DNA of 64,000 nucleotides, taken from Longimicrobiales bacterium. Its GTDB lineage: Bacteria > Gemmatimonadota > Gemmatimonadetes > Longimicrobiales > Gaopeijiaceae. Position numbers and translations under genes: made by a program. Below, one piece after another: positions 18,347-56,794 of the stretch. Under the pieces are notes generated by a model. That model had not been told where the DNA came from and searched no databases. It saw nothing but the letters and a program-made list of their open reading frames with translations. Where the stretch lies: assembly GCA_965202985.1 (NCBI GenBank), contig CBDBCF010000001.1, positions 2,112,001 to 2,176,000 of the forward strand. The letters run 5' to 3'. Numbering within the stretch: position 1 is the first letter of the stretch; every line of letters begins with the position of its first letter.

Positions 18347-19213
18347 CTATGCATCGCCCGCGTCCAAAGCCGGCTCCCACGGAACGGAAGTCAAGAAGTC
18401 GACCAGAGCTCTGCTTGCCGGCGATTCTTCGAACGCCGTCTTTGGTAGGCCCTCCCTGCCTATGACGACCGACATCGGAGCGCCCGGGCAACTAAACTGC
18501 CCCGCTATCGTTATTCCCGCCTTCGTGCGATTGGCAATGCCCCGAGACACCTGATCTTCGGGGTTCCTGTATGCGTCAATAAAGTCCAGTGCCCGGGCGT
18601 ACCTATCGGGCCAAGCCACCGAGACCATCGGCCCCAGGTGATCTTCCAGGGTTCCCGTGTCTTCCGCATTTCCGGAAAAGACAAAGCACCCGACCGGAGC
18701 CACATCCGTTGCCATCCGCATCCCGTGTCGCAGCTCCGCCAAGTCTCCGTAATGCGTGCGGTAGCGCTGCCGGACGTTGTCGAGCGTGCCCGCTACGCCA
18801 ATTTCGTTTGCATCGTGCAAGAGTGCGATCGCGTATTGCGACACGTCGTATGAAACATTACCGGCAATCTCCATCGTTGTCTTCACCTTGTCGAGAAAGT
18901 CTACAATCGGATTCGTCTGGTCCTTGCCGTGAGCGCGAAACAGAAAAAACACCGTATCCAAATCAACACTCTGCAAGACCGCTTCAAGCGTGGGCAAACG
19001 GGGATGCGTCGCCGTCTGCAACGTGAGGTCACTAACGGCATACCGATCAATGTGTGTTGCAATCAAACCTCGACCCGCATGGCTATGGCCAAATGGCGAA
19101 GGCAAGTCCCGAATCTTGCCGTCGACCCAACGACAACCACCCACGACGCCGAGGCTGCGTTGCGTAAACACTACATCGTGACGACCCTCGCAAAACACGA
19201 GAATCGCCTTCAT
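18347..19213 (-). CDS. DUF3226-like TOPRIM-fold protein (putative nuclease/effector)
   Basis: N-terminal ILVFCEGRHD, LLHDAN, GTLED; ATGA overlap with the upstream ATPase. Confidence 0.65.
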   Translation of the reverse strand: MKAILVFCEGRHDVVFTQRSLGVVGGCRWVDGKIRDLPSPFGHSHAGRGLIATHIDRYAVSDLTLQTATHPRLPTLEAVLQSVDLDTVFFLFRAHGKDQTNPIVDFLDKVKTTMEIAGNVSYDVSQYAIALLHDANEIGVAGTLDNVRQRYRTHYGDLAELRHGMRMATDVAPVGCFVFSGNAEDTGTLEDHLGPMVSVAWPDRYARALDFIDAYRNPEDQVSRGIANRTKAGITIAGQFSCPGAPMSVVIGREGLPKTAFEESPASRALVDFLTSVPWEPALDAGDA

Positions 19214-21405
19214 CGCAATCCGCGAACGTCAAAATCCACCGCCTCGTGCAAGCGCCGAAGTTGCTTGCCGCCAAACCGCCGCACTGCGATATCTCCGTTT
19301 TCTTGCCCCAACACATAACAAGCGATGTCGTCCGTGCGATAGTCGTTCACCAGCAAAGCATCCAACGCCTCTTTGCTGTGCGTGGTGAGAAACACCTGCA
19401 CATTGAGCTTGACCGCGAGCTTCTGAACAATGAGCGTGAATCCAGAAAACAAGTCCTTGTGCATTGCATTCTCGAATTCGTCGACAAGCAAGACGCCACC
19501 ACGAACACCCGCAAACAACAGGCCGATCTCGAAGACCCGTCGCACTCCTTCCCCAAACCACGACCGATCCGGCGCCGTTGCGAAGTCTCGATGAGATACC
19601 AAGAATCGATTGAACCGGTCTGCCAGTTCGATATTGCGGAGGCCTGAGTCAATCTCGTTTCGAATAAAGTCGATGACTTCCGCCTTGGTTCCCGCCTCCA
19701 GACTTGCCTTGTTGGAGCGGGCAAGCACGGCGGGTCGACTGGCGTAGAACGGACTCGTGAACGCCGTCCGGCACAGCCAATGCTGGCCATCAAATGTCGT
19801 GCGCCGCCGCCGGTCGCTAAAGAATGCGGTCTCCGTTCTTTGGGCACGACTGCCGTAGCAGGACATGACCATCAGTTTGGTCAAGAACGTCGTCTGATCG
19901 CCAATGTCGGCATCCGGCACGCGCACGACGTTGGTGGTGAAGCTCGCGTGATTGTCGTCAACGGCGTCGAATACTCCCGACACTTGCACGGAGTCGGGAA
20001 GCTGATCGGCGATCCAGGCTGGTTCGGGGTCGCCTTCGATTCGGCTTCGCCAACGGAGTACGTCCAAGAGGGCTCGTTCGTCGTTCTGGCGAGCGAGCAG
20101 ATAGACCGCTTCCAGCAACGACGTCTTGCCGGCGTTGTTGACGCCCACGATCACGTTGACGCGACCAAGGTCCTCAAGGGCGATTCCGCCGATGCCTCGA
20201 TAGTTGTCGACGCAAAGAGACGAAAACTGTGATTTAGTGATCTCATTGAAGGGTTGCCAGGGCAGGCGTTCGCCAGTGGTTGGCGGACGACGCTTGTGTG
20301 CCAGAGAAACTCCTTGGAGACGGCCGATGAATTGGTCTACCCGGTCCAGATTTTCGGGCTTCAACTCGCCGATCCGCCGAGTGACCTTGTCGATTCCGGC
20401 ATCCAAAGCGCCAAGTACGCGCTCGATCTCGCTCTTGACGAGCTGTTCGCTGGACAACGCGGCTTCTTGAAGACTTCTCGTTTCCTCCAGGCGTGAAAGT
20501 GCATCGGGATCGTCGATCAGCTTCGCCAAGTCGCGAACCTGGATCGCAGACGTGATCACCGCATCCGGCGTTGGTCGCGAGTCGTCCGATTGACTGTCTT
20601 CTTCCTCGAGCGTGACATCCTTCGACATCCAGGCAAACAGCCGGTCGAGGTTGGACTGATTTGCAACGGAACGGGTGGACTCGTCCCACCCCAACCATTT
20701 GCGCATCCCTGGGCTCCTCAGGACTTCGCGGAAAAGGTTGTACTTGTCCGAGCGGAATTCATCGCCGTAGTCTCTGGCCTTGTACATTTCGATCAATGCG
20801 AGAGTGCGAATGGACAAATTGAATTCGCGCTTGCTGACGCCCAACGCCCGACACACGGCATCGGCATCCTCGAAATGATCGAGAAGCGTCTTCATTGCCA
20901 ACGCTCGATTGATGGCGGGCCATCGTCGCTTGCCCGTGATGTGATGAAGCCCCATCATGATCATGCGATGGTGCTCGTCGGCATCGTCGTAGACGACAAC
21001 GGGCAGGGACGAAAAGCGGTTGCTGTCCAAGTTGCCGAGGTCGATCGAGTCTTCGGCGTGGCGGATCTGGAGGTGCTTCAGCGTAGCAACGCGCCGATTC
21101 CCTTCGATGACCAAGTACCGGCCCTTGCCCTTGCTGTGGACCAGGAGTGGATCGATGTCCAGCCACCCGTTCTCCTTGATGCTGGCAATCAGATCGCGAA
21201 CTTGATCCTGATTGCGGCCCAGGACGAAGGTCGCGGTTCGTCTCTGAACGTCCGCATCGAGTTCTCGTTCCGGCAGGATCCGGCGGTAGTCGGGGTGGTC
21301 GACGATCCGAAAGTTGTTCGGATCAAGGTAGAGGTTTTTGAGGGACACGGACCGGCGGTTGCCGTGCGCAATGGATTCGCCGCTCGTGGTTGGCTGGTCG
21401 CTCAT
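19210..21405 (-). CDS. ParB/Srx-like N-terminal domain fused to AAA_15/AAA_21-type ABC ATPase
   Basis: LYLDPNNFR and YLVIEGNRRVATLK (ParB-like); Walker A GVNNAGKTS, FGEG, Walker B LLVDEFEN, H-loop LTTHS. Confidence 0.85.
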   Translation of the reverse strand: MSDQPTTSGESIAHGNRRSVSLKNLYLDPNNFRIVDHPDYRRILPERELDADVQRRTATFVLGRNQDQVRDLIASIKENGWLDIDPLLVHSKGKGRYLVIEGNRRVATLKHLQIRHAEDSIDLGNLDSNRFSSLPVVVYDDADEHHRMIMMGLHHITGKRRWPAINRALAMKTLLDHFEDADAVCRALGVSKREFNLSIRTLALIEMYKARDYGDEFRSDKYNLFREVLRSPGMRKWLGWDESTRSVANQSNLDRLFAWMSKDVTLEEEDSQSDDSRPTPDAVITSAIQVRDLAKLIDDPDALSRLEETRSLQEAALSSEQLVKSEIERVLGALDAGIDKVTRRIGELKPENLDRVDQFIGRLQGVSLAHKRRPPTTGERLPWQPFNEITKSQFSSLCVDNYRGIGGIALEDLGRVNVIVGVNNAGKTSLLEAVYLLARQNDERALLDVLRWRSRIEGDPEPAWIADQLPDSVQVSGVFDAVDDNHASFTTNVVRVPDADIGDQTTFLTKLMVMSCYGSRAQRTETAFFSDRRRRTTFDGQHWLCRTAFTSPFYASRPAVLARSNKASLEAGTKAEVIDFIRNEIDSGLRNIELADRFNRFLVSHRDFATAPDRSWFGEGVRRVFEIGLLFAGVRGGVLLVDEFENAMHKDLFSGFTLIVQKLAVKLNVQVFLTTHSKEALDALLVNDYRTDDIACYVLGQENGDIAVRRFGGKQLRRLHEAVDFDVRGLR

Positions 21406-33415: not shown

Positions 33416-34810
33416 TCAGCGCAGCTCGCACCATCGCACTAGATCGCCCAGGGGACGGCCGCCGTCGTGCAGCCAGTCCGCGTCCGGAAAGGGCATCTGG
33501 TCCAAGGGAACGATCCTGCTGACGCCCAGGCCGCACAGCGCTTCGGCGAACTCGGGGTCCGGCGCGACCCCTGCCAGGCCGACGGTCTGCAGGACGGGCG
33601 ACAGGCCGGCCAGCATCTGCGCGCACGCGTCCCGGCCCGAAGCCGGCACGACCCAAGCGGTGCGGCTTCCCACTGGTTCGAAGTGCTCCATGTCCGCCAT
33701 GACCACGGTCCACGCCAGGTCGGGCGCGGCCCAGAACTCCACGTCTGCCCCTGCGGCTTTCTTGACGGCGAGCCGACCGTGCAGCTGCCGAACGGCCGAC
33801 TGCGCGCCCACCTCCGGGGGTCCGGGCGGAAGGGAGGCGTCCAGCGCGGCCAAGCGGCTCCCGAGCGCGTCGCACCATGCGGCGGCCTCGGGCCGGTCGG
33901 CGAGGAGCAGGAACAGGTGGGCGCTCACGCAGCCGCGCTGGTCGAAAAGGGCCACGGCGCGGGCCGCTTGTTGGACGGCGTCCGAAGCCGCGGCGGGATC
34001 GACGACGGCGACGCCCAGCCGGTTCGGATGTTCGGTCAGGCGGGTCGTGGCGGGCGCGCGGGCGCGGACCGCGTTGACGGCGTCGTCGCTTCCGTGGACG
34101 ACTACTTGGTCTGCGAGACCGAGCACCGCGCGCTCCCAGTGGTCGTGGGCGGCCACGCCTCCGGGCCAGTACTGGACTGCGACGGCAGCCGCCACCGCTG
34201 GATCCGCGCCGGCAAGGATCCGGGCGAAGCGCATCGTCAGCGCCACGTCGCCGGCCCCTGGCTTGGCCAGCACGGCCGACTTCACAACCAGGGACCGGCA
34301 GATCGAACCGATCGTCAGGCCGGGCACCGAGCCGGCGCCGACGTGAACGACCAAGGGGTGGCCGGACGCCCGAACCCGTCGGCCGCCGTCGATCGCGAAG
34401 CCGTCCAGCACGTCCGGATCCGGAAACTCGGCGCGGACTAGGCGGGCCAGGGCGGCTCCGCTCCACGAGCGGCTCATCTCGGTCACGACCTCCTGGATCA
34501 TCGGCGCCGACAGGCGGGCGTTCGCGGCGGCCTCGCGACAGGCGGCCCCGGACGGTCCTCCTTCGTCCAGCTCCTGCCGGAGACGGCGGGCGGCTCGCGC
34601 CAGGGCCTGTGCGATCTCCATGGCGGGCCGGTCGGCCAAGCGCCTCCGGGCCTTGCGGAGACCGGACGCCAGGGTGTGCGCGGATGCGGGGTCGGGGCGC
34701 GGGTAGCGAACGGTCGCCCCCCCGGCGCGGATATCGTCCACGAACTCGGGGGCGGGCACGCCGGAGGGCCAGAACCAGCCGTCCAGTGGCGCCGGGCTCC
34801 CGCCGGTCAC
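33416..34810 (-). CDS. acyl-CoA reductase, LuxC family
   Basis: HVGAGSVPG, FDQRGCVSAH (catalytic Cys), GVSRIVPLDQM..WLHDG. Confidence 0.82.
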   Translation of the reverse strand: MTGGSPAPLDGWFWPSGVPAPEFVDDIRAGGATVRYPRPDPASAHTLASGLRKARRRLADRPAMEIAQALARAARRLRQELDEGGPSGAACREAAANARLSAPMIQEVVTEMSRSWSGAALARLVRAEFPDPDVLDGFAIDGGRRVRASGHPLVVHVGAGSVPGLTIGSICRSLVVKSAVLAKPGAGDVALTMRFARILAGADPAVAAAVAVQYWPGGVAAHDHWERAVLGLADQVVVHGSDDAVNAVRARAPATTRLTEHPNRLGVAVVDPAAASDAVQQAARAVALFDQRGCVSAHLFLLLADRPEAAAWCDALGSRLAALDASLPPGPPEVGAQSAVRQLHGRLAVKKAAGADVEFWAAPDLAWTVVMADMEHFEPVGSRTAWVVPASGRDACAQMLAGLSPVLQTVGLAGVAPDPEFAEALCGLGVSRIVPLDQMPFPDADWLHDGGRPLGDLVRWCELR

Positions 34811-35958
34811 GAACGGCCCCGGACGGCCCGCAAGAACGCCTCCGCCGTCAACGAGCAGCCCCGCGGCTCCGCGCCCCCGGCCCGGCCCAGCAGCTGGAAG
34901 CCTCCGCCGGGAACCAACTTGCCCAGGTCCTCCGTGAGCACGTGGCACACCGAGGCGGCGTTGGCCAGGTCGAAGTGGGCCAGCAGGCCGGGCTGGCCGG
35001 GCGGCAGGGGCGTCAGAGTCGTGGGGTCGAGGGCTCGCGTTCGCACCCAGGGCGGAAAGCGGTGAACGCGCTGGGACGGGGGCGCGGCCTCCTCCGCAAC
35101 GGTGCCGGCGGCGTGGTCGTAGGACTGCGAGAGCATTTCGGTCATCCCGTACTCGTTCACGATGTGCGAGTCGGGCACGCCGAGCTGGCGGGATATTCGG
35201 GCGTAGAGGGTTTCCCGGTCCACCTCGGCGGTCCGTCCCTTGAAGCCGCCTGTCTCCATGACGCGGGAGTCGGGCGGTAGCCGGATCGGGCGCGTCTCCA
35301 ACGCCTCCAGCAGCTGGACCAGCGCGAAGGCCGTCGCCGCCAGCAGGACTGGTTCGCGAGCCGTCGCCGCAACCTTGCGAACAACCTCAGCGTCCACGCC
35401 CCGCTCGGGGTCGAAGGCCCATGTCGCCCCGACGACCTCTGGTTCCTCGGCAATGAACCCGCACATCGCCGACAACGACGAATCGGGCGCCGCTCGGGGG
35501 TGGGGCGCCAGCGACACCACGCGAACCCGCTTCAGCCCCGCGAACAGGTTGCGTCGGTAGGGCCCTCGGGCCGCCGCCCGGTACAACGCCATGCTGGCCA
35601 CGTGGTGTTCGCCCCGTCGGGCGCCTCCGCTGGTCGTGCCGCTGGTGCGAAACACGGCCTCGGCCTTGCCGGAGACGATCGCAACGTCGCGGAAGGCGGT
35701 GGTCGGCACGGGCGGAACCTCTTCCCATCGCCGGGGGCTGCCCGCGCCGGCGTCTTCCCAGTAGTGCCGCAAGACGGGGTTGGAGCGGCGCTGGGCGTCG
35801 TGGACCTGGAGGGCCAGCCGGTTGAAGGCGTCCGCGCCAAAGAGGGCGGGGTCCGAAAGCGCGGCGTCGGCGTAGGCTCGAAACAGCCGCACAAGCTGTG
35901 CGACCACCGGCAAGGACCGAGGCGGCTCCACGGGAGACGAGGACATCATGCGGGACAT
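34807..35958 (-). CDS. acyl-protein synthetase, LuxE family
   Basis: FRTSGTT, METGGFKGR, NEYGMTEMLSQ, DLAN..TEDLG, GRAGGAEPRGCS; start uncertain (35949-35982). Confidence 0.85.
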   Translation of the reverse strand: MSRMMSSSPVEPPRSLPVVAQLVRLFRAYADAALSDPALFGADAFNRLALQVHDAQRRSNPVLRHYWEDAGAGSPRRWEEVPPVPTTAFRDVAIVSGKAEAVFRTSGTTSGGARRGEHHVASMALYRAAARGPYRRNLFAGLKRVRVVSLAPHPRAAPDSSLSAMCGFIAEEPEVVGATWAFDPERGVDAEVVRKVAATAREPVLLAATAFALVQLLEALETRPIRLPPDSRVMETGGFKGRTAEVDRETLYARISRQLGVPDSHIVNEYGMTEMLSQSYDHAAGTVAEEAAPPSQRVHRFPPWVRTRALDPTTLTPLPPGQPGLLAHFDLANAASVCHVLTEDLGKLVPGGGFQLLGRAGGAEPRGCSLTAEAFLRAVRGRS

Positions 35959-36101
35959 CGTTGCGCGAAGGAAAGCGTCCACTCCGAAGGGAAGCGCCCG
36001 CTCGAAAGGTAGCGTAGAATATATGGCTTCCCGGCGGCCGGCTCTTCGGACGAGACGGCTGCGCTTCGGTCATCGACGCGAACAGACGGCGGCTTCGACG
36101 C

Positions 36102-38561: not shown

Positions 38562-38891
38562 ATGAAGAAGCTGGAACTCAGCGACGCGCAATGGAAGCGG
38601 ATTTGCCACCATTTCCCCGAGGAGTCGAAGCCGAAGGGCCAACCGGGTCGGCCTTCCGTGCCTGCTCGGGAGGTCCTCGACGCGGTGCTCTGGATCATGC
38701 ATTCCGGCACCCCGTGGCGCTATCTTCCCCAATGCTACCCCAACTACAAGACGGTGCATCGGCGATATCTGACCTGGGTGCGAACAGGCGTCCTGGAGCG
38801 GGCGCTCAAGGACTTGGAGGCCGAAACCAGAAGCCGGAGTTTCCTGCCGACGGAATGGGACGCCTGGCAGCCTACGTCGGACAGTCCGTAA
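38562..38891 (+). mobile_element. IS5-family transposase N-terminal fragment (DUF4096-like); no catalytic ORF follows
   Basis: LSDAQW..GRP..REVLDAVLWIMHSGTPWRYLP..YKTVHRRYLTW..GV. Confidence 0.8.
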
Positions 38892-39053: not shown

Positions 39054-39490
39054 ATGCCTGTGTTCATCCCTAACCGCGACGACTATCCCCGTGCGGCCTG
39101 CAAGCTCTTGGCTGACGCATTAGTGCTCAAGGCGAGACATCGCTACGACGGTGCAGTCTACCTAGCAGGCTACGTCGTCGAATGTAGTCTGAAGGCGTTG
39201 AAAAACTGGAAGTTGGGCAGGTGAAGCGAACTCACGACTTGGCCAAACTCCACGATACCGTAGCTCGCCTTGTCAGTGAAGCGGATGTTCGGACCGCTCG
39301 ATTTGCCGAGCCCCTCGCCGATGTCCTGCGGAACGCTGGAATTATTGCTTGGGATCCACAGATGCGCTACTGTGCGCCCACAGCCGACGCTGATCAAGCG
39401 GATCAATGGACGACGGAAGCTCGTCACGTGTACTCGGTCGTAGTCGGAGGTCTGGTCATGGATGGGACTCTCGGACATGCAGGAGGATAG
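39054..39490 (+). pseudogene. HEPN-like protein split by an apparent 1-nt deletion near 39200
   Basis: AVYLAGYVVECSLKA in one frame and KRTHDLAKL..W.PQMRY in the -1 frame; joined product about 145 aa. Confidence 0.65.
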
Positions 39491-40772
39491 GTCGTTGGAC
39501 GGGTCGACGCCCCACTTCGACGAGGCGTACGCCAACGTGGTATCATCTGTTGACCGCCTTCTGCGACAGAAGACGGAACCGTGGCGTGTTCTGTTGATCA
39601 CGGATTTGACCAGTCAGCTGCGCGCCATACTCTGGTGCCCCGACGAGGATTGGACACAAGGCCGGGACCAGTGTTCCGAGGCGCTGGCCGTTGCGTGCGG
39701 ACCGTATTGGTCGGACAGTGTCATCCGGGGCCGCACCGGCGCCGACCATCCTCAACCCCTACGTGTGTTGCAACGACACCGAGCGAAGTCGGCTTGGTTT
39801 GACGGCCCGACCGATCCACCGTGGCCGGGAGGGCAGCACGACTCTACCATCGCACTGTTCTATTCTTTCAAAGGTGGTGTCGGTCGTTCTACAGCCCTCG
39901 CCGCCACAGCCCTACACTTGGCCGCCACCGGAGAGCGCGTCGTGGTTCTGGACGCTGATTTCGATGCCCCCGGGTTGGGCTCTCTGTTGCCAGATCGCGA
40001 TCGTACCACATCACGCCACGGAATCGTGGATTATTTGCTTGAACAACCCGTTCTGGCGGCTAACGACATCGTCGCTGACATTGGCGAATACTACCACCGA
40101 TCTCTATTCTCGTATTCGGGTACGGACAGAGAGATTCTCGTGTTTCCCGCCGGGACGTTGAATGCGGATTTCGTCCGCAAGCTTGGTCGTGTTGACTACA
40201 CGCGTTCTTTGTCTACCCGTGAACATCCATTCCTGTCGCTCTTGGGAGCGATTCGAGACAACCTAAACCCGCAATGGATACTTATTGACTCGCGAGCGGG
40301 GCTTGGCGAGGCATCCGGCCTTCTAACTGGCGGCCTCTGTCACATAAACGTGCTCTTCGGGGCCCTTGCAGAAGCAAGTTGGGATGGCAGCGCACTGCTC
40401 TTGGATCGCCTCGGTGCGCAGCGAGTGCAGGCGTCAACGCCCCGCCCCCAGGGTGAATGTGTTTGGGTTGCACCGATGGTGCCGCAACGAGGACACCAGG
40501 AGGTAATGGCACGATTCTCGGAACGATCCCGCGATTTGTTCGCAGAGCGGTACTACGCGCATCCGAACGACGGGGACGGCCCGTGGACCTTGGACGATCT
40601 AGAAGATGACGATGCGCCACATGTGCCCGTGGCCATTATGTATGATCCGATTCTCATCGACATCCCCACCGCGACGGACGTTTCGGAAAGCTTGCTAAGG
40701 TCGTGGCCCTATCGGAGCCTCGTCAATAGAATGCTCACGTGTCGCGAACGACTTGTAGGAGAAACGGACTAG
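39477..40772 (+). CDS. ParA/MinD-like ATPase, KGGVGR-motif variant
   Basis: FYSFKGGVGRST, VVVLDADFDAPG, GIVDYL, ILIDSRAG; alternative TTG start at 39495 after AGGAGG. Confidence 0.85.
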   Translation: MQEDRSLDGSTPHFDEAYANVVSSVDRLLRQKTEPWRVLLITDLTSQLRAILWCPDEDWTQGRDQCSEALAVACGPYWSDSVIRGRTGADHPQPLRVLQRHRAKSAWFDGPTDPPWPGGQHDSTIALFYSFKGGVGRSTALAATALHLAATGERVVVLDADFDAPGLGSLLPDRDRTTSRHGIVDYLLEQPVLAANDIVADIGEYYHRSLFSYSGTDREILVFPAGTLNADFVRKLGRVDYTRSLSTREHPFLSLLGAIRDNLNPQWILIDSRAGLGEASGLLTGGLCHINVLFGALAEASWDGSALLLDRLGAQRVQASTPRPQGECVWVAPMVPQRGHQEVMARFSERSRDLFAERYYAHPNDGDGPWTLDDLEDDDAPHVPVAIMYDPILIDIPTATDVSESLLRSWPYRSLVNRMLTCRERLVGETD

Positions 40773-42289
40773 TGACAACCAGGAGGCAACTTACCAAGGC
40801 TGGGTGCGCCGAGCTGCGACGGCAGTTGCGTGATCTTGGCTACGGACAAGCCGAGACGGAAATGGAAGATATGTTTGCATTGCGCGTGTATCCGGTTCCT
40901 GATCACCTCAGAGCTATTGATCCAGGGGTAGTGTTGGTTGTTGGCTCCCGAGGGTCGGGAAAGAGCGAATTGTTTCGGGCATTCTTTCAGCAGAGTGCAG
41001 AAATGCGGCAAGCTTTGGTGAATCACACGCAATTCGGAAATTCCCGAATGCTGTCCCTTGAGCACGCCAAATGGTTGTCGGCTTATCCGAAGGGCATTGA
41101 CTTTCCGGATGAGCGTGCCCTAAAAAGCCATGTTCATACTGACGAGCAAGCGCAAAACGTCTGGTATGCAATGCTAGTTCGATGTCTGAAGAACGAATTT
41201 GATGCGGATGTAAGATCAGAACTTGATCCACTTCTGTCCGCCAGGGCGGCGGACTTGGGAACCGTCTTGGGAGCAATGGACTCGCTGAGCCTTAGTCCGA
41301 CGGTTGCGCTCGACGATCTGGAAGAAAGATTGGCGAACGAAGGAAGGTGGGTATTTCTGGGATATGACGAGCTGGATACCCTAGGTGGAACCGATTGGTC
41401 GCTGATGGCTAGGATGATTCGGGGCTTGATGGCCTTCTGGTCCAGTTATGGACGTCGCTGGAAGCGACTTCGGGCCAAGATTTTTCTTCGATCCGATCTC
41501 TTTCGCCGGCACGCCGATATGGGCACGGCAGATTTTGCGAAATTGGCGGCTAATCGCGCCGAACTTACTTGGTCGAATGCCGCGATCCTTGGAATGCTGG
41601 TCAAGAGAATCGTCAACACGTCTCCGGGGCTGGCGGAGTATTGTGCAGGAAAAATCGGGCTCGATCCGCAGAGATCCTTGGGGCTAATGCCGCGAGTCGA
41701 GCGCCCAGAGGACGCGTTTCCGTTGTTGGAGCGAATGGTCGGTGAACATATGGGTGCAACGAAGAAGAAGGGGTACGTTCGGAACTGGGTTTTTACGCAC
41801 TTGTACGACGGCAACAAGCACATCAGCCCGCGCACGATGGTTCGTCTCTTCGAGAGCGCGGCAACAAAGGATGCAGTGAATCAGACCGTCCGAGTACCGC
41901 GGCTTTTGCATCCCACCGCACTTCGACAGGGCCTAACCGACGTAGCGACGGATCATGTGACGCAGGGTCACCACGAATGGCCTTGGCTGGAAGGTGTCAA
42001 GCGTCGCTTGGCCGAGCAGCCGCTAGTGCCGTGGCCACGCACACGCTTCAATGAACTCTTGTCCACGGACTGGAACGGAGAGTGGCACGCTTCCAAGCCA
42101 TCTGTTCGTCCACCGGCGGATCGGGCTGCCGACCTTGGCGACTACCTGATCGAATTGGGGATCGTGCGGAAGCGCACCGACGATCGAATCGACGTGCCCG
42201 ATCTGTACCTCTTCGGTTTCGGCCTGCGGCGCAAAGGAGGCGTCAGGGCAAGGCAACAGCCTTCCAGTCGGCCCACAGGGCCAAAGTGA
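40772..42289 (+). CDS. P-loop NTPase, Sll1717-like (STAND/KAP-related)
   Basis: VVGSRGSGKS, FLGYDELD, KIFLRSD, C-terminal LIELGI..DVPDLYLFGFGLRRKGG; GTG overlaps the upstream TAG. Confidence 0.78.
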   Translation: MTTRRQLTKAGCAELRRQLRDLGYGQAETEMEDMFALRVYPVPDHLRAIDPGVVLVVGSRGSGKSELFRAFFQQSAEMRQALVNHTQFGNSRMLSLEHAKWLSAYPKGIDFPDERALKSHVHTDEQAQNVWYAMLVRCLKNEFDADVRSELDPLLSARAADLGTVLGAMDSLSLSPTVALDDLEERLANEGRWVFLGYDELDTLGGTDWSLMARMIRGLMAFWSSYGRRWKRLRAKIFLRSDLFRRHADMGTADFAKLAANRAELTWSNAAILGMLVKRIVNTSPGLAEYCAGKIGLDPQRSLGLMPRVERPEDAFPLLERMVGEHMGATKKKGYVRNWVFTHLYDGNKHISPRTMVRLFESAATKDAVNQTVRVPRLLHPTALRQGLTDVATDHVTQGHHEWPWLEGVKRRLAEQPLVPWPRTRFNELLSTDWNGEWHASKPSVRPPADRAADLGDYLIELGIVRKRTDDRIDVPDLYLFGFGLRRKGGVRARQQPSSRPTGPK

Positions 42290-43581: not shown

Positions 43582-45906
43582 CTACGTCTCCGTCAACTTG
43601 GCGCGCATGGATTCGAAAGCGTCGTCCATACCCGTCAATCGAGCCTTCAGGCGGTTGATCCGCAAGCAGATGTCGTCCCTGAAAGCGTGCAGGGCCATGT
43701 CTGTATGGTCAAGAGCGCCTGCTTGCTCCCTCTCGTGCGTCGCGTGCGCTTCCAGGGCGCCCTGCCAGCAACAGTGCGGCACCTGCCACCACGCAAAGAA
43801 GGTCTCCTCCATTCGCTCCCACACGATGTCGAAGTCGTCCCGTTCGGCCTTGACGGCGGCCATCGCGCAAGCCTTCGGCGTCTTGGCGAACCCCTCCAGC
43901 AGGGGGAAGACTTGGACGGGAAGCGACCTCTCCCGCAAGCCGCCGAAGAACAGCTCCCAGTCGGGGATGCCCGGCTGCTCGGCCATTCGAAGGGCCACGG
44001 ACTGAAACGCCTCGACCGCCTCGGTTCCGTCCAGCCTGCTCGCGTACGCCTCCGCGATTGTCTTCGGGCGACGAGGGGCGCGCTTCGATTGCGGCGTGGC
44101 CGGCCCCACGTGCCAGATCAGCGGCCAAAGGCGGCGTCGGCTCGCGCTGCCTCCAACGACGAGGTACGGTCCGGGCCCAAAGTCCTGTTCCGGCGCCAGC
44201 CAACCGGTCTTGCTTGCGCGCTTCAGCGATGTCGGCTTCAGGTCGGGATCGAGAAGAAACAGCGCCTCGACATCAAGGTCCGCCAAGTCGGCGGCGGTCA
44301 GCTTGGAGCGGCTCGACTTGTCAAGATCGAGTACGGACGAATCGGCGTCGCGGCGTTCCAGCTTCAAATCGAAGCGCATCACCGAGACGTATGCGGGCCG
44401 GGGGGCGCTCGTTCCTCGGGCGTCACGCATACCTCCTCGGGCGCCGCAAATGCGCAACTGAACCGCGCCGTCCAAGTCCCGGCTGTGCGCCAGCGCATCC
44501 TCGACAGCGGATTGGACAGCGGCAAGGTCCAGCGCGTAGTGTCCGGGACTTGTTGCCGGGATTTGCACTGCGATCCGGTCGCGGCGGCGTCGGACCTTGG
44601 TCGCGTCCTTCCCGACGTATCGCCCCTGGACCTCGAACATCGCGTGGCCCGCAGCAACGACTTCGGCACGCGCGCCGGCCAGCTGCGTTGTGGTCAGAGC
44701 GGAGCCCGGCGACAGTTCCTGGCCTCGGGGGCCGAAGAACGCCGCGTGCTCGGTGGGGAACGGAAGCCTCAACTCGGCCGTCCCCAGCAGGCCGTCCGGG
44801 CCCGGCCAGTCCACCCTGACGATCACGTCGCGGGGAGGTTTTTCGTCTTGAACGGTCAGCTCCAAGCGATACTCGTCGCTGTCGCCGCTGGTGCGTGCGT
44901 GCAAGCGCTCGCCGACCGAGGCTTCGATCTCGCCGAAGCGCAGCAGCCGTACTTCCCCGCGTCGCGGATCGGTCGAGGTGTGGAGTTCGACAGCAGCTCG
45001 TTCCGGCAGCGTGCGGAGTCGAACGGAACGGCGCACCACGTCTCCGTCCACGTACCGCAAGGTGCCTGCTCCCACTACTAAGTCGCAGTCGGACAGGCTC
45101 TTCCATGTCGTTCCGGATACGTCCGGCATCCACTGCAGATCGCACTCGGGGACGACGCCCTGCTGTTCGCCGTTGCGCCATTCGCGCATGGCCGGGCGAC
45201 CCAAGAACACGGGCGTCCTCTCCCGACCGAAGGCGCGTCGCGTCCCTTGTAACCTGTACTCCACGTCTGCGCTGTCCGACGAAGCCGCCGTCTCAATTGT
45301 GATCGACGAGCCGTTGCTTCTGCGCAGGATTGCCTTGCCCCGCACACGATAGAGACGGCGCGCTCCGGGGCGCATGACGTCCACGACTGCCGCCCGGTCG
45401 TCGTCTCCCGTCTCGATCTCGGTGTCCACGCTCGCGGCGACCAGGACCCAGGGCATATCGAGATCGACCGACCGTCCGCCAGCAACGCCATGTACTTTGT
45501 GCAGGACTTGCGCCGGGTCCGCAGCGAACAGCCAGGGAAGGTCGCCCAGGCTTGGGCTGGCCGGCTCGCCCAGGATCCAGGCGATCAGTTGTCGGGCGTC
45601 CTCGGAGGCGTTCACGCGGACTTGCAACACCTTGAACCGGCGCTCGCCTCCGGGCAGCTCGACGACGATCTCCTTGCCTTGGCGTGCACGCAGGAGCGCA
45701 TCGCCCATCGGCGAACTGGCGGACACGTGGCCAGCGTTGAGGTCGACCTGGGCGCTTCCCACGACCGTGTGGCGCAGCAGCTCGTCGTCGGTCAGGTCGT
45801 GAACGACGACCTCCACGCCACGGCGGACCGGAATTCCGATCTCCAACTCGTACGTCAGGAGATCGAGTTCGTCGCTGATCTTGGAGTCGGTAGCGTCGTC
45901 AAGCAT
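43582..45906 (-). CDS. GreA/GreB C-terminal domain fused to an STY4851/ECs_5259 (DruH-like) body
   Basis: N-terminal TVVG..D...[32 protein letters not shown] matches the Gre C-terminal domain; LPWLF and [22 protein letters not shown] recall the STY4851 family (by memory, less certain). Confidence 0.6.
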
Positions 45907-46212
45907 GAAGCAATGCGGACTCGCGGGCCTCTTGCTTGCAGGCTCGCGCGGGGCGTACGATACTGCGGGGCCGTACAGACTGCTGCGCGCCGGCGTCGGA
46001 GTCAAGCAGGCCGACCGTCGAGTGCGCCGAAACGGAGGACCAGCTATGGACCGCAAGGCCGATTGCGCAACCCGCGTCGGAGCCGACTACGGAACGTCCG
46101 TTCGGGCCGCGTGGGGCGTCCGGTGACGCTCGCACGGCCGATGACAGTTGGGCTCCCGATAATGCCTGCGCGGCCGACGGCGGTTGGGCTCTGGATGGTG
46201 CTTGCGCATTCA

Positions 46213-47451: not shown

Positions 47452-49770
47452 TCAGGATGGACGCGACGCCCGGGCACGAAGCCGCGTACGCAATGTTGTC
47501 TGGATCTGAGCGTACAGGCGTGCTTGTTCGGCTTGACGGTCAGCGAGAACTACCGCCAGCGCATACTCTTCTCGCTCCGACGACAGTCCTCCTCCCCAGG
47601 CCGGGTCATTCCGTGTAACAACGAACACCCAGCGACACTGACGCAGTTTCTCGGATGGCTGCTTGACCTCCCAGCTAGAAGCTTGAACCGTACCCCGTGA
47701 CCGCACTTGTGCTGTGATGCTCCTCCCCGAACTTCGTTCCGGCATCGCCGGTGCATCGCTTCGAGCGGTTTCCGCATTGAATGACCGAACCACCTGCTCA
47801 ACGGAATCGGACTGAACAAGCGAAAAGCTGATCTTGACTGCTCGATAGTCGACGCGAGTCGTCTGCACCGGCGACCGATAGGCCAGCGCTACCGTCATCT
47901 TTCGCGACCGGCGTCCGCTTGACCAGTAGTCTGCTGGGATCGGAATTTCGTAGAACTGGTGACTCTTGTTCCCAATCAAATCCATGGCCCAAAGCGTGAC
48001 GCAGTTGTCAAGAGAGCGAAACAGCGCGGTTCGGTCCACTCTTCCGTACCCAGCAACGTGCCGCACCTCGATCCTCGACTCCGAGCACAGCTCCTCGCAA
48101 CTCGGCGGAACTTCAGCGTGAGCTGCCAGTAGGGCTCGGCAGAGATCCACGCTTGCCTCAGGCATGTGCACAAGCATCGTTGCCACCAAATTGGACACCC
48201 GCGGTGCTGCGAAGCTGGTGCCGGAACAGGTTTCGAAAGGCATTCCGCTAGCGAAGCTTAGCGAAGTAGAGAGTTCTCCAACTTCCATTGACCCTGTGAG
48301 GCCTGTGCGATGGTCAACAAGTTCGTTGCCACCATAATCGACAAGGTCCGGCTTGATTGCTTCGTTCACTGATGGCCCGTGTCTTGTAAAGGGTGATGGT
48401 TGGCCCGCTCGGGCCACAGGAGCGTAGCCCGGATCGTCCGGCCAACGAGGATCGCGATCGTAGCGAGCCAGACTTCCGATCGTCAGCGCGTTCAACGCAG
48501 GTGCCGGGTCAATGAGAGTCGCATCCTTGTCGTGAAGGTGTCTCGGGTATCTGTCCGCTGGAGTAGCAGCAGTATCCAGATTGCCAGTAGGAACGACAAA
48601 GAGCACGCCAAGTTCCCTGCTGAGCGAATCCAGAGTCACGGCAAGCCCACGGACATGTCGACCATGGTACGGCTTCCGCCGGTCGCCATACGAGAGATTG
48701 AACACCTTGCAGCCATAGTTATCCACAAAGTATCGTACCGCCTCCTCAACTTGATTTTCAATGAGACGGGCGTCGCCCTCAACGCGTTCATCCAGTATTC
48801 GGCCGCTGTATAGCGTCAGGTCGGGCACAAATCGACGCTTCTCCACGCATTTGGCGACATCGCCGTAGAGCGTGATTCCGGCGACGAGCGTACCGTGCCC
48901 GTTGTCGTCCGCCGCTGAGCTGCCAGTCAAGAAGCTCTGGGAATCTCCGACGGCCGGGGCCAATACAGGGTGCCCGGACGCGATGCCGGAATCGAGAACA
49001 ACGACACCGGGAGCACCTGACGGGGGAGCACGTACTTCCTCCAGTTCCTGGACGCTGCGGCCTCGAAGGCGCCGGTCCAACATAACCCGAGGAGGCAAAT
49101 CAACAAGTCGGACGTCTCGGTGCCGTAGCAGCTTGCCGACCAGACTGCTAGAGCTCTTCGTACGATAGAGGCACAGGTACGGCTTTCGCACTGAATCAAC
49201 TGCTTCACCGCCGTTGTCTTCCAGCCATCGCTCGAACGCCTTTCGAAGACGGTTCATTTCAGCGGCACTCGCAAGCGGCCAAAGCTCGACATCTACAGTG
49301 ACGACTGCCTTCTGTGGGATTCCTTCGCGATTCAGTGACCATCTGGTTCTGTCTTCTGGCGTCAGCTGGTCCAGGTCGCGAAGGGCATAGATCAACTGAC
49401 GATACGTTACGTAAGTTCCTTCGGCGACGCCGCCAAGCTTACGTCGGAAATCAACGAGCTGTTCGTCAGTAGCGAACGCCAGGACTAGCTTCTTGTCCTC
49501 TTGACTCACGACCTCAATGCCTTTGGCGACCTTCACAATCTCCTCCGGGGGAACGCTGGTGTCCAAGTGCAACCTGACGAGTCGTCGGGCGTCGTAGCCG
49601 CCTATTTCGGGATCGGCGTGAAGAAGCGAGTCGAGTCGTCGCTGGAGGTGGCTGCCATGAGCTCGGGGGTCCTCCGGTTGTCGCGGCTGTCCAAAGCCTT
49701 TCGCGGGCCTTCGGTCCGTGATCGGCTTCTCTCTCGTAAGGTGCAAGTGCGGATAATCGGAGCTGCTCAT
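47452..49770 (-). CDS. S8 family subtilisin-like serine protease (IetS-like)
   Basis: Triad VVVLDSG / NGHGTLVAG / SGTSFAAP; KPDLVDYGGN; no signal peptide; ATGA overlap with the AAA ATPase. Confidence 0.9.
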   Translation of the reverse strand: MSSSDYPHLHLTREKPITDRRPAKGFGQPRQPEDPRAHGSHLQRRLDSLLHADPEIGGYDARRLVRLHLDTSVPPEEIVKVAKGIEVVSQEDKKLVLAFATDEQLVDFRRKLGGVAEGTYVTYRQLIYALRDLDQLTPEDRTRWSLNREGIPQKAVVTVDVELWPLASAAEMNRLRKAFERWLEDNGGEAVDSVRKPYLCLYRTKSSSSLVGKLLRHRDVRLVDLPPRVMLDRRLRGRSVQELEEVRAPPSGAPGVVVLDSGIASGHPVLAPAVGDSQSFLTGSSAADDNGHGTLVAGITLYGDVAKCVEKRRFVPDLTLYSGRILDERVEGDARLIENQVEEAVRYFVDNYGCKVFNLSYGDRRKPYHGRHVRGLAVTLDSLSRELGVLFVVPTGNLDTAATPADRYPRHLHDKDATLIDPAPALNALTIGSLARYDRDPRWPDDPGYAPVARAGQPSPFTRHGPSVNEAIKPDLVDYGGNELVDHRTGLTGSMEVGELSTSLSFASGMPFETCSGTSFAAPRVSNLVATMLVHMPEASVDLCRALLAAHAEVPPSCEELCSESRIEVRHVAGYGRVDRTALFRSLDNCVTLWAMDLIGNKSHQFYEIPIPADYWSSGRRSRKMTVALAYRSPVQTTRVDYRAVKISFSLVQSDSVEQVVRSFNAETARSDAPAMPERSSGRSITAQVRSRGTVQASSWEVKQPSEKLRQCRWVFVVTRNDPAWGGGLSSEREEYALAVVLADRQAEQARLYAQIQTTLRTRLRARASRPS

Positions 49771-50776
49771 GCGTTCGACGATCTCCGCGCCCTTCGAGTC
49801 CTTGCCTTTTCATACCGATGCGCGGCCGCAATGTGGCCCGTCGTCAGGTATGAATCGTCGCCCTGAAGAACCATCTCCTTCATCGCCCGGCGCAGGACGC
49901 GTTCCACGTCGGCATGGCTCGCACCGTCGAAGATGCCTGACGCCGCCAGCTCGTCAAGGCCGATTCTTCGGCGCACACCGCGAAGCTTGACCTCCAGGAG
50001 CTTGCGCACCTGCGTCCTAGTGGGAGGCCCCAATACCAGGATCTCCTCGAACCGGCGCCAGATCGCACGATCAAGCATTCCCTCGTGGTTGGTGGCGGCA
50101 ATGACGACACTGCGGCCTTCGTAGGCATCGAACATCTGGAGAACGGCATTTACGACCCGGCGAAGCTCCCCGTGCTCGGTGGCGTCGTCGCGCTCCTTGC
50201 CCAGGGCGTCAAATTCGTCAAAGAGCGCTACCGTGGGTTGTGCGGCTATGAAGTCGAACACCCTTCGAAGGTTCGCGGCGGTCTCTCCAGGAACGAGGAG
50301 ACAACGCTGTCGGTCCGGACAACCACGAATGGGCGGCCCAACTCGTGGGCGATCACTTCCGCCGTGAGTGTTTTGCCGCAACCTGGCGGGCCACAGAAGA
50401 GAACTCTGTCGCTTGGCCGCAGACCGTAGGCCTTCAGGACGTCGTCGCGATGGTTCTCGCGAACAATTCGCCTGACCAGAGAGAGATTGATGGGCGACAG
50501 CACGACGTCTTCCAAGCGCCGAGACGGCTCTTTCACCGCCAGGAGAGGTATGCCCCTTTCGTGGTCGTGGGGAACTGCGGCCGCCAACCTCCGCGAAGCG
50601 GCAGACCTCGGCTTGGCAGGACGGCCGTATAGGATGCTCTCCAAATCGTCGGCCAGGAGGTGGTGTTGCTTCTGACGTTCCTCGGCGATGACCTTCTTAG
50701 CAACGCCCCGGAAGGCGGCGAGGTCGCCGTCCGCTCCAGAGCGCACCAACTGACGCAACAGGTTGCCGTTCGCCAC
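49767..50776 (-). pseudogene. AAA+ ATPase (IetA-like), frameshifted at 50287-50288
   Basis: GPPGCGKT..VVSSFL in one frame and GETAANLRRVF..FDEFD..AATNH..DRAIWRRF in another; one added G restores SSFLGETAA (336 aa). Confidence 0.85.
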
Positions 50777-50921: not shown

Positions 50922-50968
50922 ATCGTCCTTGCTAATCGAACGTCTATCGTTTAATCTGCAAGGATGAT
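50922..50968 (+). promoter_or_regulatory. putative leaderless promoter with flanking inverted repeat
   Basis: TTGCTA-N17-TAATCT ending 6 nt before ATG 50964; arms ATCGTCCTTGC and GCAAGGATGAT match at 10/11 positions. Confidence 0.5.
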
Positions 50969-52136
50969 TCCGCGACGACATCAAGCTCGCGTGGTCCGCA
51001 GCCTCGACGAGGTGCCCGCCGTCGTCATCTTGGGACCTCGCCAGATCGGCAAGACCACCCTGGCGCGCGAGATCGCCGCCACGGCTCCCGGAAGCGTCTA
51101 CCTGGACCTGGAGGATCCCGACCAAGCCGCCAGGCTCGCCGACCCGGCACGCTACCTCGCGCAACACGCCGGCACCCTGACGATCCTCGACGAAGTCCAG
51201 CGGATGCCCGGCCTCTTCGACGTCTTGCGGGGCCAGATCGACCTTCGGCGGCGCGAGGGGCGGCGCGCCCGCCACTTCCTCCTGCTCGGCTCGGCCTCCC
51301 GGACGCTCCTGAACCAGTCCGCCGAGTCGCTGGCCGGACGTCTGGTCTACTACGAGCTGCCGGGCTTGGACGCCCAGGAGGTCGGCGACGACAGCGACCG
51401 GGACAGGCTCTGGCTCCGCGGCGGATTCCCGGACTCGTTCACCGCCCGCAGCGACGCGGCTTCGGCACGTTGGAGGCTGGCGTTCATCCGAACGTACTTG
51501 GAGCGCGAAGTTCCTCACTTCGGGGTGCGCGTTCCGGCCGCCACGTTGCGGCGCTTCTGGACGATGCTGGCGCACCGGCAAGGCGGGCTACTGAACGCCT
51601 CGGCCTTGGCGCAGAGCCTGGGCGTGTCGGCCCCGACGGCGTCCCGCTACGTGGACCTGCTGGTCGACCTGCTGCTCGTGCGCCGACTTCAGCCCTACTT
51701 CGCCAACGTGGGGAAGCGTCTTGTGAAGGCGCCCAAGGTCTATGTCCGCGACACCGGCATTCTCCACGCGCTCCTCGGCTTGCGCGCCTACGACGACCTC
51801 TTGTCCCATCCCGTCGCCGGCCCCAGCTGGGAGGGCTTCGTGATCGAGAACCTGCTGGCGGTTGCGCCCTTTGGCACCGACGCCTGGTTCTATCGCACTC
51901 GCGCCGGTGCGGAAATCGACCTGTTGCTGTTGCTGCCCGACCAGAGGCTGTGGGCGGTCGAAGTCAAGCGGGGAGCGGTGCGGAAGACCAGCAAGGGCTT
52001 CGAGCTTGCCGCGAACGACCTCAACGTGGCCGAGCGGTTCGTGGTCCATTCCGGTGACGCAGCGTACCCGCTCTCCGAGCACACGACGGCGATGCCGCTC
52101 GATGCGCTGATGGCACGTCTGGCCAAGACGGAGTAG
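50964..52136 (+). CDS. ATP-binding protein, AAA_14 plus DUF4143
   Basis: GPRQIGKTT, LDEVQ, LLGSAS, ESLAGR, RGGFP, KRLVKAPKVY.RD.G, EIDL..EVK. Confidence 0.9.
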   Translation: MIPRRHQARVVRSLDEVPAVVILGPRQIGKTTLAREIAATAPGSVYLDLEDPDQAARLADPARYLAQHAGTLTILDEVQRMPGLFDVLRGQIDLRRREGRRARHFLLLGSASRTLLNQSAESLAGRLVYYELPGLDAQEVGDDSDRDRLWLRGGFPDSFTARSDAASARWRLAFIRTYLEREVPHFGVRVPAATLRRFWTMLAHRQGGLLNASALAQSLGVSAPTASRYVDLLVDLLLVRRLQPYFANVGKRLVKAPKVYVRDTGILHALLGLRAYDDLLSHPVAGPSWEGFVIENLLAVAPFGTDAWFYRTRAGAEIDLLLLLPDQRLWAVEVKRGAVRKTSKGFELAANDLNVAERFVVHSGDAAYPLSEHTTAMPLDALMARLAKTE

Positions 52137-55450: not shown

Positions 55451-55510
55451 TTGGACGTGACGGATCGAGAGGTCATTGTGCAAGCACATGCATCGGGGAG
55501 CCGACGAACC

Positions 55511-56794
55511 ATGCCGATACGTGCGGACAATCCGATTCGGAAATCGCACGAAGACGACCTGGGCTGGGACATCCAAGCAAAGCGGTTTTCCAACGCAATA
55601 CGACAACTGGATGCCAGCGAAGGCCTAGTAGTAGGGGTGTTTGGGACTTGGGGATCGGGGAAAACTTCCTTTATCAATCTGGTCCGCGAACACCTTGAGT
55701 CGTCTGGTGGATACAAAATAATCGACTTCAATCCGTGGATGTTTAGTAAAGCACAAGATCTCGTTCTTGCCATGTGTACCCAGTTGTCGTCCTCGCTGTC
55801 TGACAACAAGAAGGGCTTGGCTAAAAATATACTGAAATACGGCCTGGCCGTTGCCGAAATTGCCGCCGAGACTGTATCACCACGGATCCTGCGCTTTGCC
55901 ACAGCAATACGCAAGAAGACAGAACGAAATTTATCGCAGTTGCGCAGAGCCATATCGACTGAGCTCAAGAAGAAATCGAATGATCCCATGGTAGTAGTTG
56001 TAGATGACTTGGATCGCCTTGAGGCCGACGATGTTCGTCAGGTCATCAAGTGTGTTCGGCTGACGGCAGCATTTCCGAAGGTGATATACATTGTCGCCTG
56101 TGATCGCTGCCGTACCGCGACAGCTCTGAACGATTCGCTAGCTCTAGGTGAGCCTTCTGGTTCATCTTGGGGACACGATTATCTTGACAAGATATTCCAA
56201 GTTGCGTTCAACATTCCGGTTGTTGGTTCCGCCGAACTTGAAAAACAAGCTAAACGTGCGCTCGACGACGTTTGGGACAGGGTGCCCGGAAAGACAAGGA
56301 ATGGAGAGTTGATGGACATGGCCGAAGCCGCAATTCTAATGCCTCTCGTCAAAAATATGAGAGATGTTCGGCGCTTTGCAAACGCTATCTTGGCAACAGC
56401 CCTTGTGATCCCCGATGGAATCCGGAAGGATTACCTGATAGCACTCGAGGCCATACGTGTGTTTCTCCCCGATTCCTACGTTGCACTTTGCGCTGCTGTT
56501 GACGGCCTTACACAAATTCCCATCAATTTGGACGAGAAGGATGTCCTGGGTGGCCAAGTGCGCGCCATCCTCGATAAGGCGGGCAAAGAACGTGAGGTAA
56601 TCGCAGATTTGATTAACATGTTTTTCCCGGAGGGAGCCATCTGTATTTCCGATGACAGCCACTTTGAACAATGCATGCAAGGCGGCGGCTTGCCATTGTC
56701 CATGTTGCCTCGAGAAGATCGGTACGGCCCTTGGCCCGATGACGATGCTGATCGACGACAGATACTTGATCAATATCTGGGCAATGTCCTGTAG
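55511..56794 (+). CDS. KAP family P-loop NTPase
   Basis: DDLG, GVFGTWGSGKTS, FNPW, VVVVDDLDRL, YLDKIFQ, NMRDVRRF. Confidence 0.88.
   Translation: MPIRADNPIRKSHEDDLGWDIQAKRFSNAIRQLDASEGLVVGVFGTWGSGKTSFINLVREHLESSGGYKIIDFNPWMFSKAQDLVLAMCTQLSSSLSDNKKGLAKNILKYGLAVAEIAAETVSPRILRFATAIRKKTERNLSQLRRAISTELKKKSNDPMVVVVDDLDRLEADDVRQVIKCVRLTAAFPKVIYIVACDRCRTATALNDSLALGEPSGSSWGHDYLDKIFQVAFNIPVVGSAELEKQAKRALDDVWDRVPGKTRNGELMDMAEAAILMPLVKNMRDVRRFANAILATALVIPDGIRKDYLIALEAIRVFLPDSYVALCAAVDGLTQIPINLDEKDVLGGQVRAILDKAGKEREVIADLINMFFPEGAICISDDSHFEQCMQGGGLPLSMLPREDRYGPWPDDDADRRQILDQYLGNVL

Follow-up and report, generated by a model that had tools for sequence, protein, structure and literature searches.

What do three overlapping genes in an AT-richer block of a Gemmatimonadota genome encode, and do they still work? 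They occupy positions 39054–42289 of the window, that is, of the whole 64,000-nt stretch analyzed here (contig CBDBCF010000001.1 of a Longimicrobiales bacterium, positions 2,112,001 to 2,176,000). An initial annotation of the letters alone had described a HEPN-like gene, a ParA-like ATPase gene and a second P-loop NTPase gene, and had proposed a two-NTPase switch controlling a HEPN effector, matching no named defense system. The last point is not supported, and a refuting condition named by that annotation itself applies: PADLOC already lists such a system as a candidate (PDC-M28), a 2026 preprint describes it in silico under the name HINPO, and the trio is a broken member of it. We give a probability of roughly 60% to the reading that the locus holds a damaged PDC-M28/HINPO-type mobile cassette, the intact copies of which likely act as a two-NTPase switch gating a HEPN toxin. 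The broken state is an addition to the initial annotation, which does not state it.

The layout described there holds. All three genes are on the + strand, immediately 3' of an IS5-family transposase remnant (N-terminal 109 aa, 38562..38891, + strand; NF033580 3.7e-24, below the cut-off; PF13340 4.8e-24). Gene 1 and gene 2 overlap by 14 nt and gene 2 and gene 3 by one base, as would be expected of a translationally coupled operon. The block has 57.5% GC versus 68.6% for the genome; among 1192 genome segments of equal size, 12 have a GC content this low. The host is likely a sponge-associated Gemmatimonadota bacterium, since 5 of the 11 sequencing runs containing DNA of the window carry the sponge metagenome label.

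The three genes match PDC-M28A, B and C, adjacent and in order, with E-values of 1.4e-06 (on a 49-aa fragment), 2.5e-52 and 3.9e-65, and the intact trio of locus L001 matches the same models at 2.1e-14, 4.8e-60 and 4.6e-64. These are matches of the hidden Markov models (HMMs) alone, the PADLOC system rule with its score and coverage thresholds lying outside the comparison. PDCs are bioinformatic phage defense candidates proposed by Payne et al. (bioRxiv 10.1101/2024.01.29.577857), in the main text of which 'M28' does not occur; relatives of the trio are embedded in BREX and Hma systems, and PDCs were selected from contexts of this type. The window differs from PDC-M28 in that not all three genes are intact.

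HINPO is an in silico prediction of Li, Burroughs and Aravind (bioRxiv 10.64898/2026.10.19.760177). As described in the sections available, it shares with the present trio the upstream HEPN gene, the ParA with an arginine in Walker A, the PG motif after sensor-1, the downstream ORC-CDC6/STAND gene, a fast-evolving N-terminal domain of ParA and occasional ParA–STAND fusion; the difference is that the copy in the window is broken. The HEPN of HINPO is assigned in that preprint to a profile named PA-HEPN1. The words 'PADLOC' and 'PDC' are absent from its main text. PDC-M28 and HINPO are apparently the same system, a link drawn in the present analysis, and we are highly confident that the cassette belongs to it. 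Discovery is pre-empted, but one point that remains of value is that the two names can be joined.

The first gene is damaged. The 5' part of the HEPN gene (PDC-M28A, PF05168 type; 39054..39224, + strand) encodes 56 aa before a stop codon, with PDLC04558 matching the first 49 aa at 1.4e-06. The 3' part continues in the -1 frame (39221..39490, + strand; positions 53–141 of the family HMM, E 1.2e-23). DNA alignment with loci L001 and L002 places a single-base deletion in a run of five A at 39201..39205 on the + strand. The HEPN-type motifs of the initial annotation lie where it placed them, YLAGYVVECSLKA at 39159–39197, THDL at 39230–39241 and WDPQMRY at 39350–39370, but they do not form one open reading frame (ORF): YLAGYVVECSLKA is in one frame, closed by a stop at 39222–39224, and THDL and MRY are in the -1 frame. 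The assignment to HEPN itself is borne out by the intact L001 homologue, which matches PF05168 at 1.1e-08, and residues E41, K45, H59, R103 and Y104 do not vary among the 49 HEPN homologues.

A run of five A is a place where a programmed or reversible frameshift or an assembly error might be suspected, which would leave the cassette functional in the window. This explanation was rejected and we consider it highly improbable. The lesion is common to contigs of X1, X3 and X8, which come from three studies (X1 is possibly the source of the window itself). In X7 the gap is filled by an extra base that is not an A, and the gene is a single ORF in 32 of 32 relatives. A second lesion and near-neutral drift follow the first, and the neighboring IetA gene is also split.

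The second lesion is in gene 2, in which 54 nt present in X3 and X7 are missing at 39751/39752. X3 is frameshifted yet carries these 54 nt; therefore, judging by this sharing, the 54-nt deletion would be later than the frameshift. The HEPN gene of X7 was lost independently by an IS1380-like insertion. The X7 contigs break inside HEPN at 39275–39277, and their loose ends are identical to both ends of a 1.8-kb DDE_Tnp_1_4 element, which we take to be of the IS1380 type, in the genome of the window. In this element (G000:C2 ~65480–67280, locus L099), the left inverted repeat is present as a tandem pair and the transposase frame matches the profile no further than position 234 of 435, starting from the first; the genome contains the 13-nt end motif 9 times. 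In locus L002, about 290 nt are lost across the junction of the HEPN C-terminus and the ParA start. Thus, three separate first lesions in the genus (frameshift in the window, X3 and X8; insertion in X7; junction deletion in L002) are all in HEPN, which makes up 13.5% of the cassette; the naive chance of all three falling there is 0.0025, a post hoc value from a small sample. Such HEPN-first losses hint that the toxin is likely the working end of the system.

When comparing the window with X3, both frameshifted, 15 of 16 differences could be listed, 10 non-synonymous and 5 synonymous. The corresponding omega is ~0.7–0.9, versus a long-term 0.07–0.11; neutrality is not rejected (p 0.31–0.54), whereas omega of 0.11 gives p from 8e-5 to 8e-4. 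The changes of ParA and STAND after the frameshift thus look near neutral. The window copy is most likely inactive because its HEPN gene is frameshifted, the N-terminal domain of its ParA is shortened and the rest is apparently drifting.

Intact copies show what the cassette was. Metagenome searches gave 65 loci with a gene 3 alignment, and 32 were kept, in which gene 3 has an intact start preceded by 1750 nt or more of sequence; the 33 excluded loci comprise 32 of insufficient length or truncated at a contig end, plus L086, which is internally deleted. The order HEPN, ParA, STAND was found in 32 of 32 loci, with HEPN a single whole ORF in all of them. Across the phylum, 10 of 401 genomes, including that of the window, have a PDC-M28C match, and the trio is present in eight of the other nine, five of these being ParA–STAND fusions; the miss, L027, has a weak match (5e-13) and neither HEPN nor ParA. 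Relatives of gene 3 were found in 22 plasmid records, and all 12 examined carry the trio (the Nostoc plasmid L138 as a ParA–STAND fusion). No parB-like gene was found among the flanking ORFs scanned, as the initial annotation had noted, and these surveys also bear out its idea of a conserved, defense-associated unit lacking ParB. HINPO is described as enriched in multicellular bacteria; copies of the trio occur in Streptomyces, Nostoc and Calothrix as well as in unicellular genera, and the trio of an Enterobacter plasmid has no DNA match in Escherichia coli genomes.

The surroundings of these copies point to defense. Strong defense neighbors were detected at 11 of 21 metagenome loci (L039, L042, L047, L048, L058, L061, L066, L069, L080, L086 and L093), with weak or ambiguous matches in L041, L045, L072 and L073 left uncounted. 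The trio lies between hmaB and hmaC in L058, L066 and L069, between pglX and pglZ in L080, and between two pglX halves in L042 and L048; on plasmids, three copies are inside BREX-2 operons and one is next to hsdR. The pglX-like methyltransferase is split at a common place, profile position ~635–640 (L042 184–8219, L048 2265–10551, L047 2897–5620), and the halves, between which the trio lies, together with an ABC ATPase pair in L048, each have their own stop and start. The longest direct repeat at the splits in L042 and L048 is 8 nt, so there is no sign of an excisable element, and the split may reflect a PglX naturally made of two subunits, together with a hotspot for insertions.

The cassette is presumably mobile, since genomes of the same genus carry it at different sites. 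This behavior would also suit a toxin–antitoxin-like addiction or stress module that stabilizes mobile DNA and accumulates in defense hotspots without itself acting against phages, as would the 22 plasmid records and the three examined copies that sit behind tyrosine integrases; HEPN–ParA dyads have been proposed as toxin–antitoxin systems (PMC3710099). We regard such a module as quite improbable, given that the trio stands co-oriented between core BREX and Hma genes and that, in the text available of Payne et al. (bioRxiv 10.1101/2024.01.29.577857), embedding in defense operons predicts defense with a high success rate. Addiction would hardly require a STAND partner of 500 aa, and L086 kept its HEPN after losing the partners. 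An anti-phage role of the intact cassette is well favored.

From the family matches, the gene order and its conservation, the folds of the predicted models, the placement in BREX and Hma and the lesions, we infer how intact copies might work; the two-NTPase switch over a HEPN effector put forward by the initial annotation is also our preferred mechanism. The ORC/CDC6-STAND protein would sense invader DNA, or the failure of the surrounding DNA-modification system, and oligomerize. It would then drive the nucleotide cycle of its partner ParA, to which it is fused in some members, taking the place of the absent ParB. The N-terminal domain of ParA, reported to be a dead nucleotidyltransferase, would dock the HEPN dimer as MNT does in HEPN/MNT pairs, and the ParA–STAND switch would turn HEPN on. 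HEPN, predicted to act on RNA, would stop translation, with arrest or death of the infected cell, probably backing up BREX or Hma as a further layer of defense.

The ATPase at the center of this scheme is gene 2 (PDC-M28B, ParA/MinD fold; 39477..40772, + strand; alternative start 39462). Its Walker A, KGGVGRS at 39870–39890, has arginine instead of the second lysine, as annotated, which is a feature of the ConB2 ParA of HINPO, and the protein passes NF047398 (KGGVGR-motif variant AAA ATPase). The PG motif downstream of sensor-1 is DADFDAPG (39951–39974) and is present in 115 of 120 homologues. ParABS partition differs in having KGGxGK[ST] rather than the Arg variant, and in having a parB.

The N-terminal domain of gene 2 (39477..39850, + strand; family HMM 1.8e-27), the third helix of which contains the in-frame 54-nt deletion at 39751/39752, corresponds by position to the iNTase of HINPO, for which a Pol-beta nucleotidyltransferase fold is reported. 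In 83 of 99 profile matches of at least 180 aa, a ParA motif follows the domain. The domain also precedes ParA-like domains with a degenerated Walker A in proteins P0339, P0351, P0388 and P0449. Its predicted order (helix-strand-strand-helix-strand-helix-strand) is compatible with the minimal nucleotidyltransferase fold. The catalytic motif G[SG]x9-13[DE]x[DE] was found in none of 34 N-domains. A Pfam scan of these 34 domains gave nothing below E 0.01, the PDB profile search gave one chance match, the hhalign score against 26 MNT proteins was 10.9, lower than that of shuffled controls (mean 12.9), and the ESM Atlas yielded no usable matches or only unnamed ones under 0.8; in whole-protein fold searches, the match lists were filled by the ParA domain. 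A nucleotidyltransferase fold may still be present, the domain being a candidate for it by position, and direct contact between this domain and HEPN is a tentative and rather doubtful element of the scheme.

The HEPN protein itself has PF05168 class II features: the conserved Tyr is present and RX4HXY is absent. In the texts available of PMC7641770 and PMC3710099 (Table 1), the usual partner of this class is MNT, and the former describes it as lacking RX4HXY, keeping the Tyr and being biochemically untested as of 2020; a literature search found no further paper on its biochemistry after that year. The cassette resembles such class II HEPN/MNT pairs (PF05168/PF01909) in these features and in having HEPN next to a domain reported as a nucleotidyltransferase fold, and differs from them in that a GSX10DXD-like motif is absent from 34 of 34 N-domains and the domain forms one protein with ParA, a STAND gene coming next. 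A Legionella HEPN has a Gln/Glu-bound Mg site instead of the Arg-His motif (PMC11586414), which is therefore a precedent for HEPN activity without that motif; the text available of PMC13000451 covers class I-type HEPN fusions only. In the PDB, the sole match of the HEPN profile is 1wol_A (E 0.4). The MAE_18760 HEPN and ParA/Soj dyad (PMC3710099, as far as described there) is similar in that HEPN has a ParA-like ATPase as its partner and proposed regulator, but it involves two genes, no STAND being described, and another HEPN family, listed as keeping Rx4-6H. A more specific idea, unlikely as it stands, is that HINPO/PDC-M28 is a captured class II HEPN/MNT pair, with the catalysis-dead MNT fused to ParA as a handle through which the ParA–STAND switch controls the toxin, and that the cassette guards BREX or Hma and fires on their inhibition. 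Should it be true, it would give a first function for the PF05168 HEPN class, a widespread one, and the sponge-symbiont strains would be a natural knockout series, with the toxin lost first, the handle second and the switch drifting.

The third component, gene 3 (PDC-M28C, ORC/CDC6-STAND-type AAA+ NTPase, 505 aa; 40772..42289, + strand), starts within the stop of gene 2. Its annotated P-loop NTPase motifs were recovered as GSRGSGKS (40943–40966) and GYDELD (41360–41377). The proposed likeness to Sll1717 stands in that NF047389 matches over most of the NTPase part, but the score of 71.7 bits is 3.3 below the cut-off of 75. NF047398 and NF047389 are protein-family labels without a system. The predicted models have a ParA fold for gene 2 and an ORC/STAND fold for gene 3, where fold matches cover residues 11–488 of 505. 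The subfamily of the window is divergent, with a PDC-M28C score of 218 bits versus 489–570 for full-length matches in the phylum. No effector domain or repeat sensor family was matched by gene 3 in the scans, and it differs in this from tripartite STAND receptors (Avs/NLR-like), which have an N-terminal effector and a C-terminal repeat sensor. No relatives of gene 3 were found in viral contigs. The APE system was rejected, as it requires an alpha-alpha toroid protein. A second PDC-M28C gene is present as an orphan 45-aa C-terminal remnant (G000:C1:2202130-2202255, - strand; locus L033 ~8122–8259), ~48 kb downstream of the cassette, directly before a molybdopterin dehydrogenase operon.

The HINPO preprint (bioRxiv 10.64898/2026.10.19.760177, sections 22 and 41) assigns the roles differently: invader DNA is detected by the ORC/CDC6-STAND protein, which seeds ParA multimers on it as a coat, so that ParA is the primary effector, HEPN a backup and the N-domain a nucleotide sensor, and the remaining ParA–STAND pair in the window could still work. 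Top fold matches do include DNA-bound pNOB8 ParA, ORC/Cdc6, TnsC and MuB, the ParA core and STAND frames are open in the window, X3, X7 and L002, and the changes in the X3 lineage are mostly synonymous (four of six). We nevertheless judge this model to be distinctly unlikely. HEPN is present in all intact-context loci examined (32/32, 8/8 and 12/12), unlike the optional effector of ParA-HeH, which many ParA-HeH systems lack according to the sections available of the same preprint. After the loss of HEPN, eight of nine changes in the window lineage are non-synonymous and the 54-nt deletion followed. The present data slightly favor the view that HEPN is the essential output and not a backup. The natural lesions thus offer a testable disagreement with the published model, and intact copies exist in cultured non-pathogens, namely in Sphaerotilus, Tistrella and Paraburkholderia phytofirmans and on Streptomyces plasmids; therefore, the question of output or backup is directly testable in cultured bacteria.

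Several points weigh against a switch gating a HEPN toxin with a role in defense. It is the window lineage that contributes the drift signal; the X3 lineage, with two non-synonymous changes in six, is uninformative by itself and compatible with continued selection, and short-term polymorphism inflates dN/dS. RNase activity of the cassette HEPN is uncertain, as the RX4HXY motif is absent. The counts of 32, 8 and 12 loci include duplicates and close kin and overstate independence. The PADLOC neighbor scan, covering 66 of 254 candidate flanking ORFs selected for their proximity, had no control set, and 10 of its 21 metagenome loci showed no strong defense neighbor; the direct neighbors in the window are not defense genes either. 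No experimental test of PDC-M28 or HINPO was found in the literature, where HINPO led to its preprint alone and PDC-M28 to no paper; the supplements of both preprints, outside the search, may list such tests or mention the family by name. Finally, HEPN is not necessarily lethal when its partners are missing: in L086 (6484–7764, with a JetB-like neighbor), HEPN is intact, ParA is cut to ~40 residues and half of STAND is deleted, and in L028, an intact HEPN stands beside a frameshifted ParA. These two loci argue against a strict antitoxin role of the N-domain, and activation of HEPN by the switch fits them better than simple release.

As for the locus itself, the cassette is flanked by cytochrome b on the left and an amidohydrolase on the right. 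An Rfam search gave no match, and a promoter scan was at chance level (1 found versus 1.0 expected). Within 21 kb of the cassette, PDC-M38, IetAS, PDC-S01, a PifA-like KAP NTPase and a DruH-like piece were found. The two-gene candidate PDC-M38A/B (window 18347–21405, - strand; 1.3e-212 and 1.2e-25) is apparently intact and lies in another low-GC block. IetAS (47452–50776, - strand) is a second decaying defense system in the window: IetS is whole (3.5e-233), and a frameshift near 50300 divides IetA, leaving two ORFs. A GreA C-terminal domain is joined to a partial YjiT/DruH-like protein (43582–46056, - strand; NF038336 7.3e-56), with no DruE partner among the scanned neighbors. A LuxE-like and LuxC-like pair (33416–35982, - strand) has weak matches below the cut-off and no luxAB among the scanned neighbors. 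The window further contains the PDC-S01 AAA_14/DUF4143 protein (50964–52136, + strand), the PifA-like KAP NTPase (55451–56794, + strand; 4.8e-53) and a DEAH-box helicase (TIGR03817; 59226–61475, - strand).

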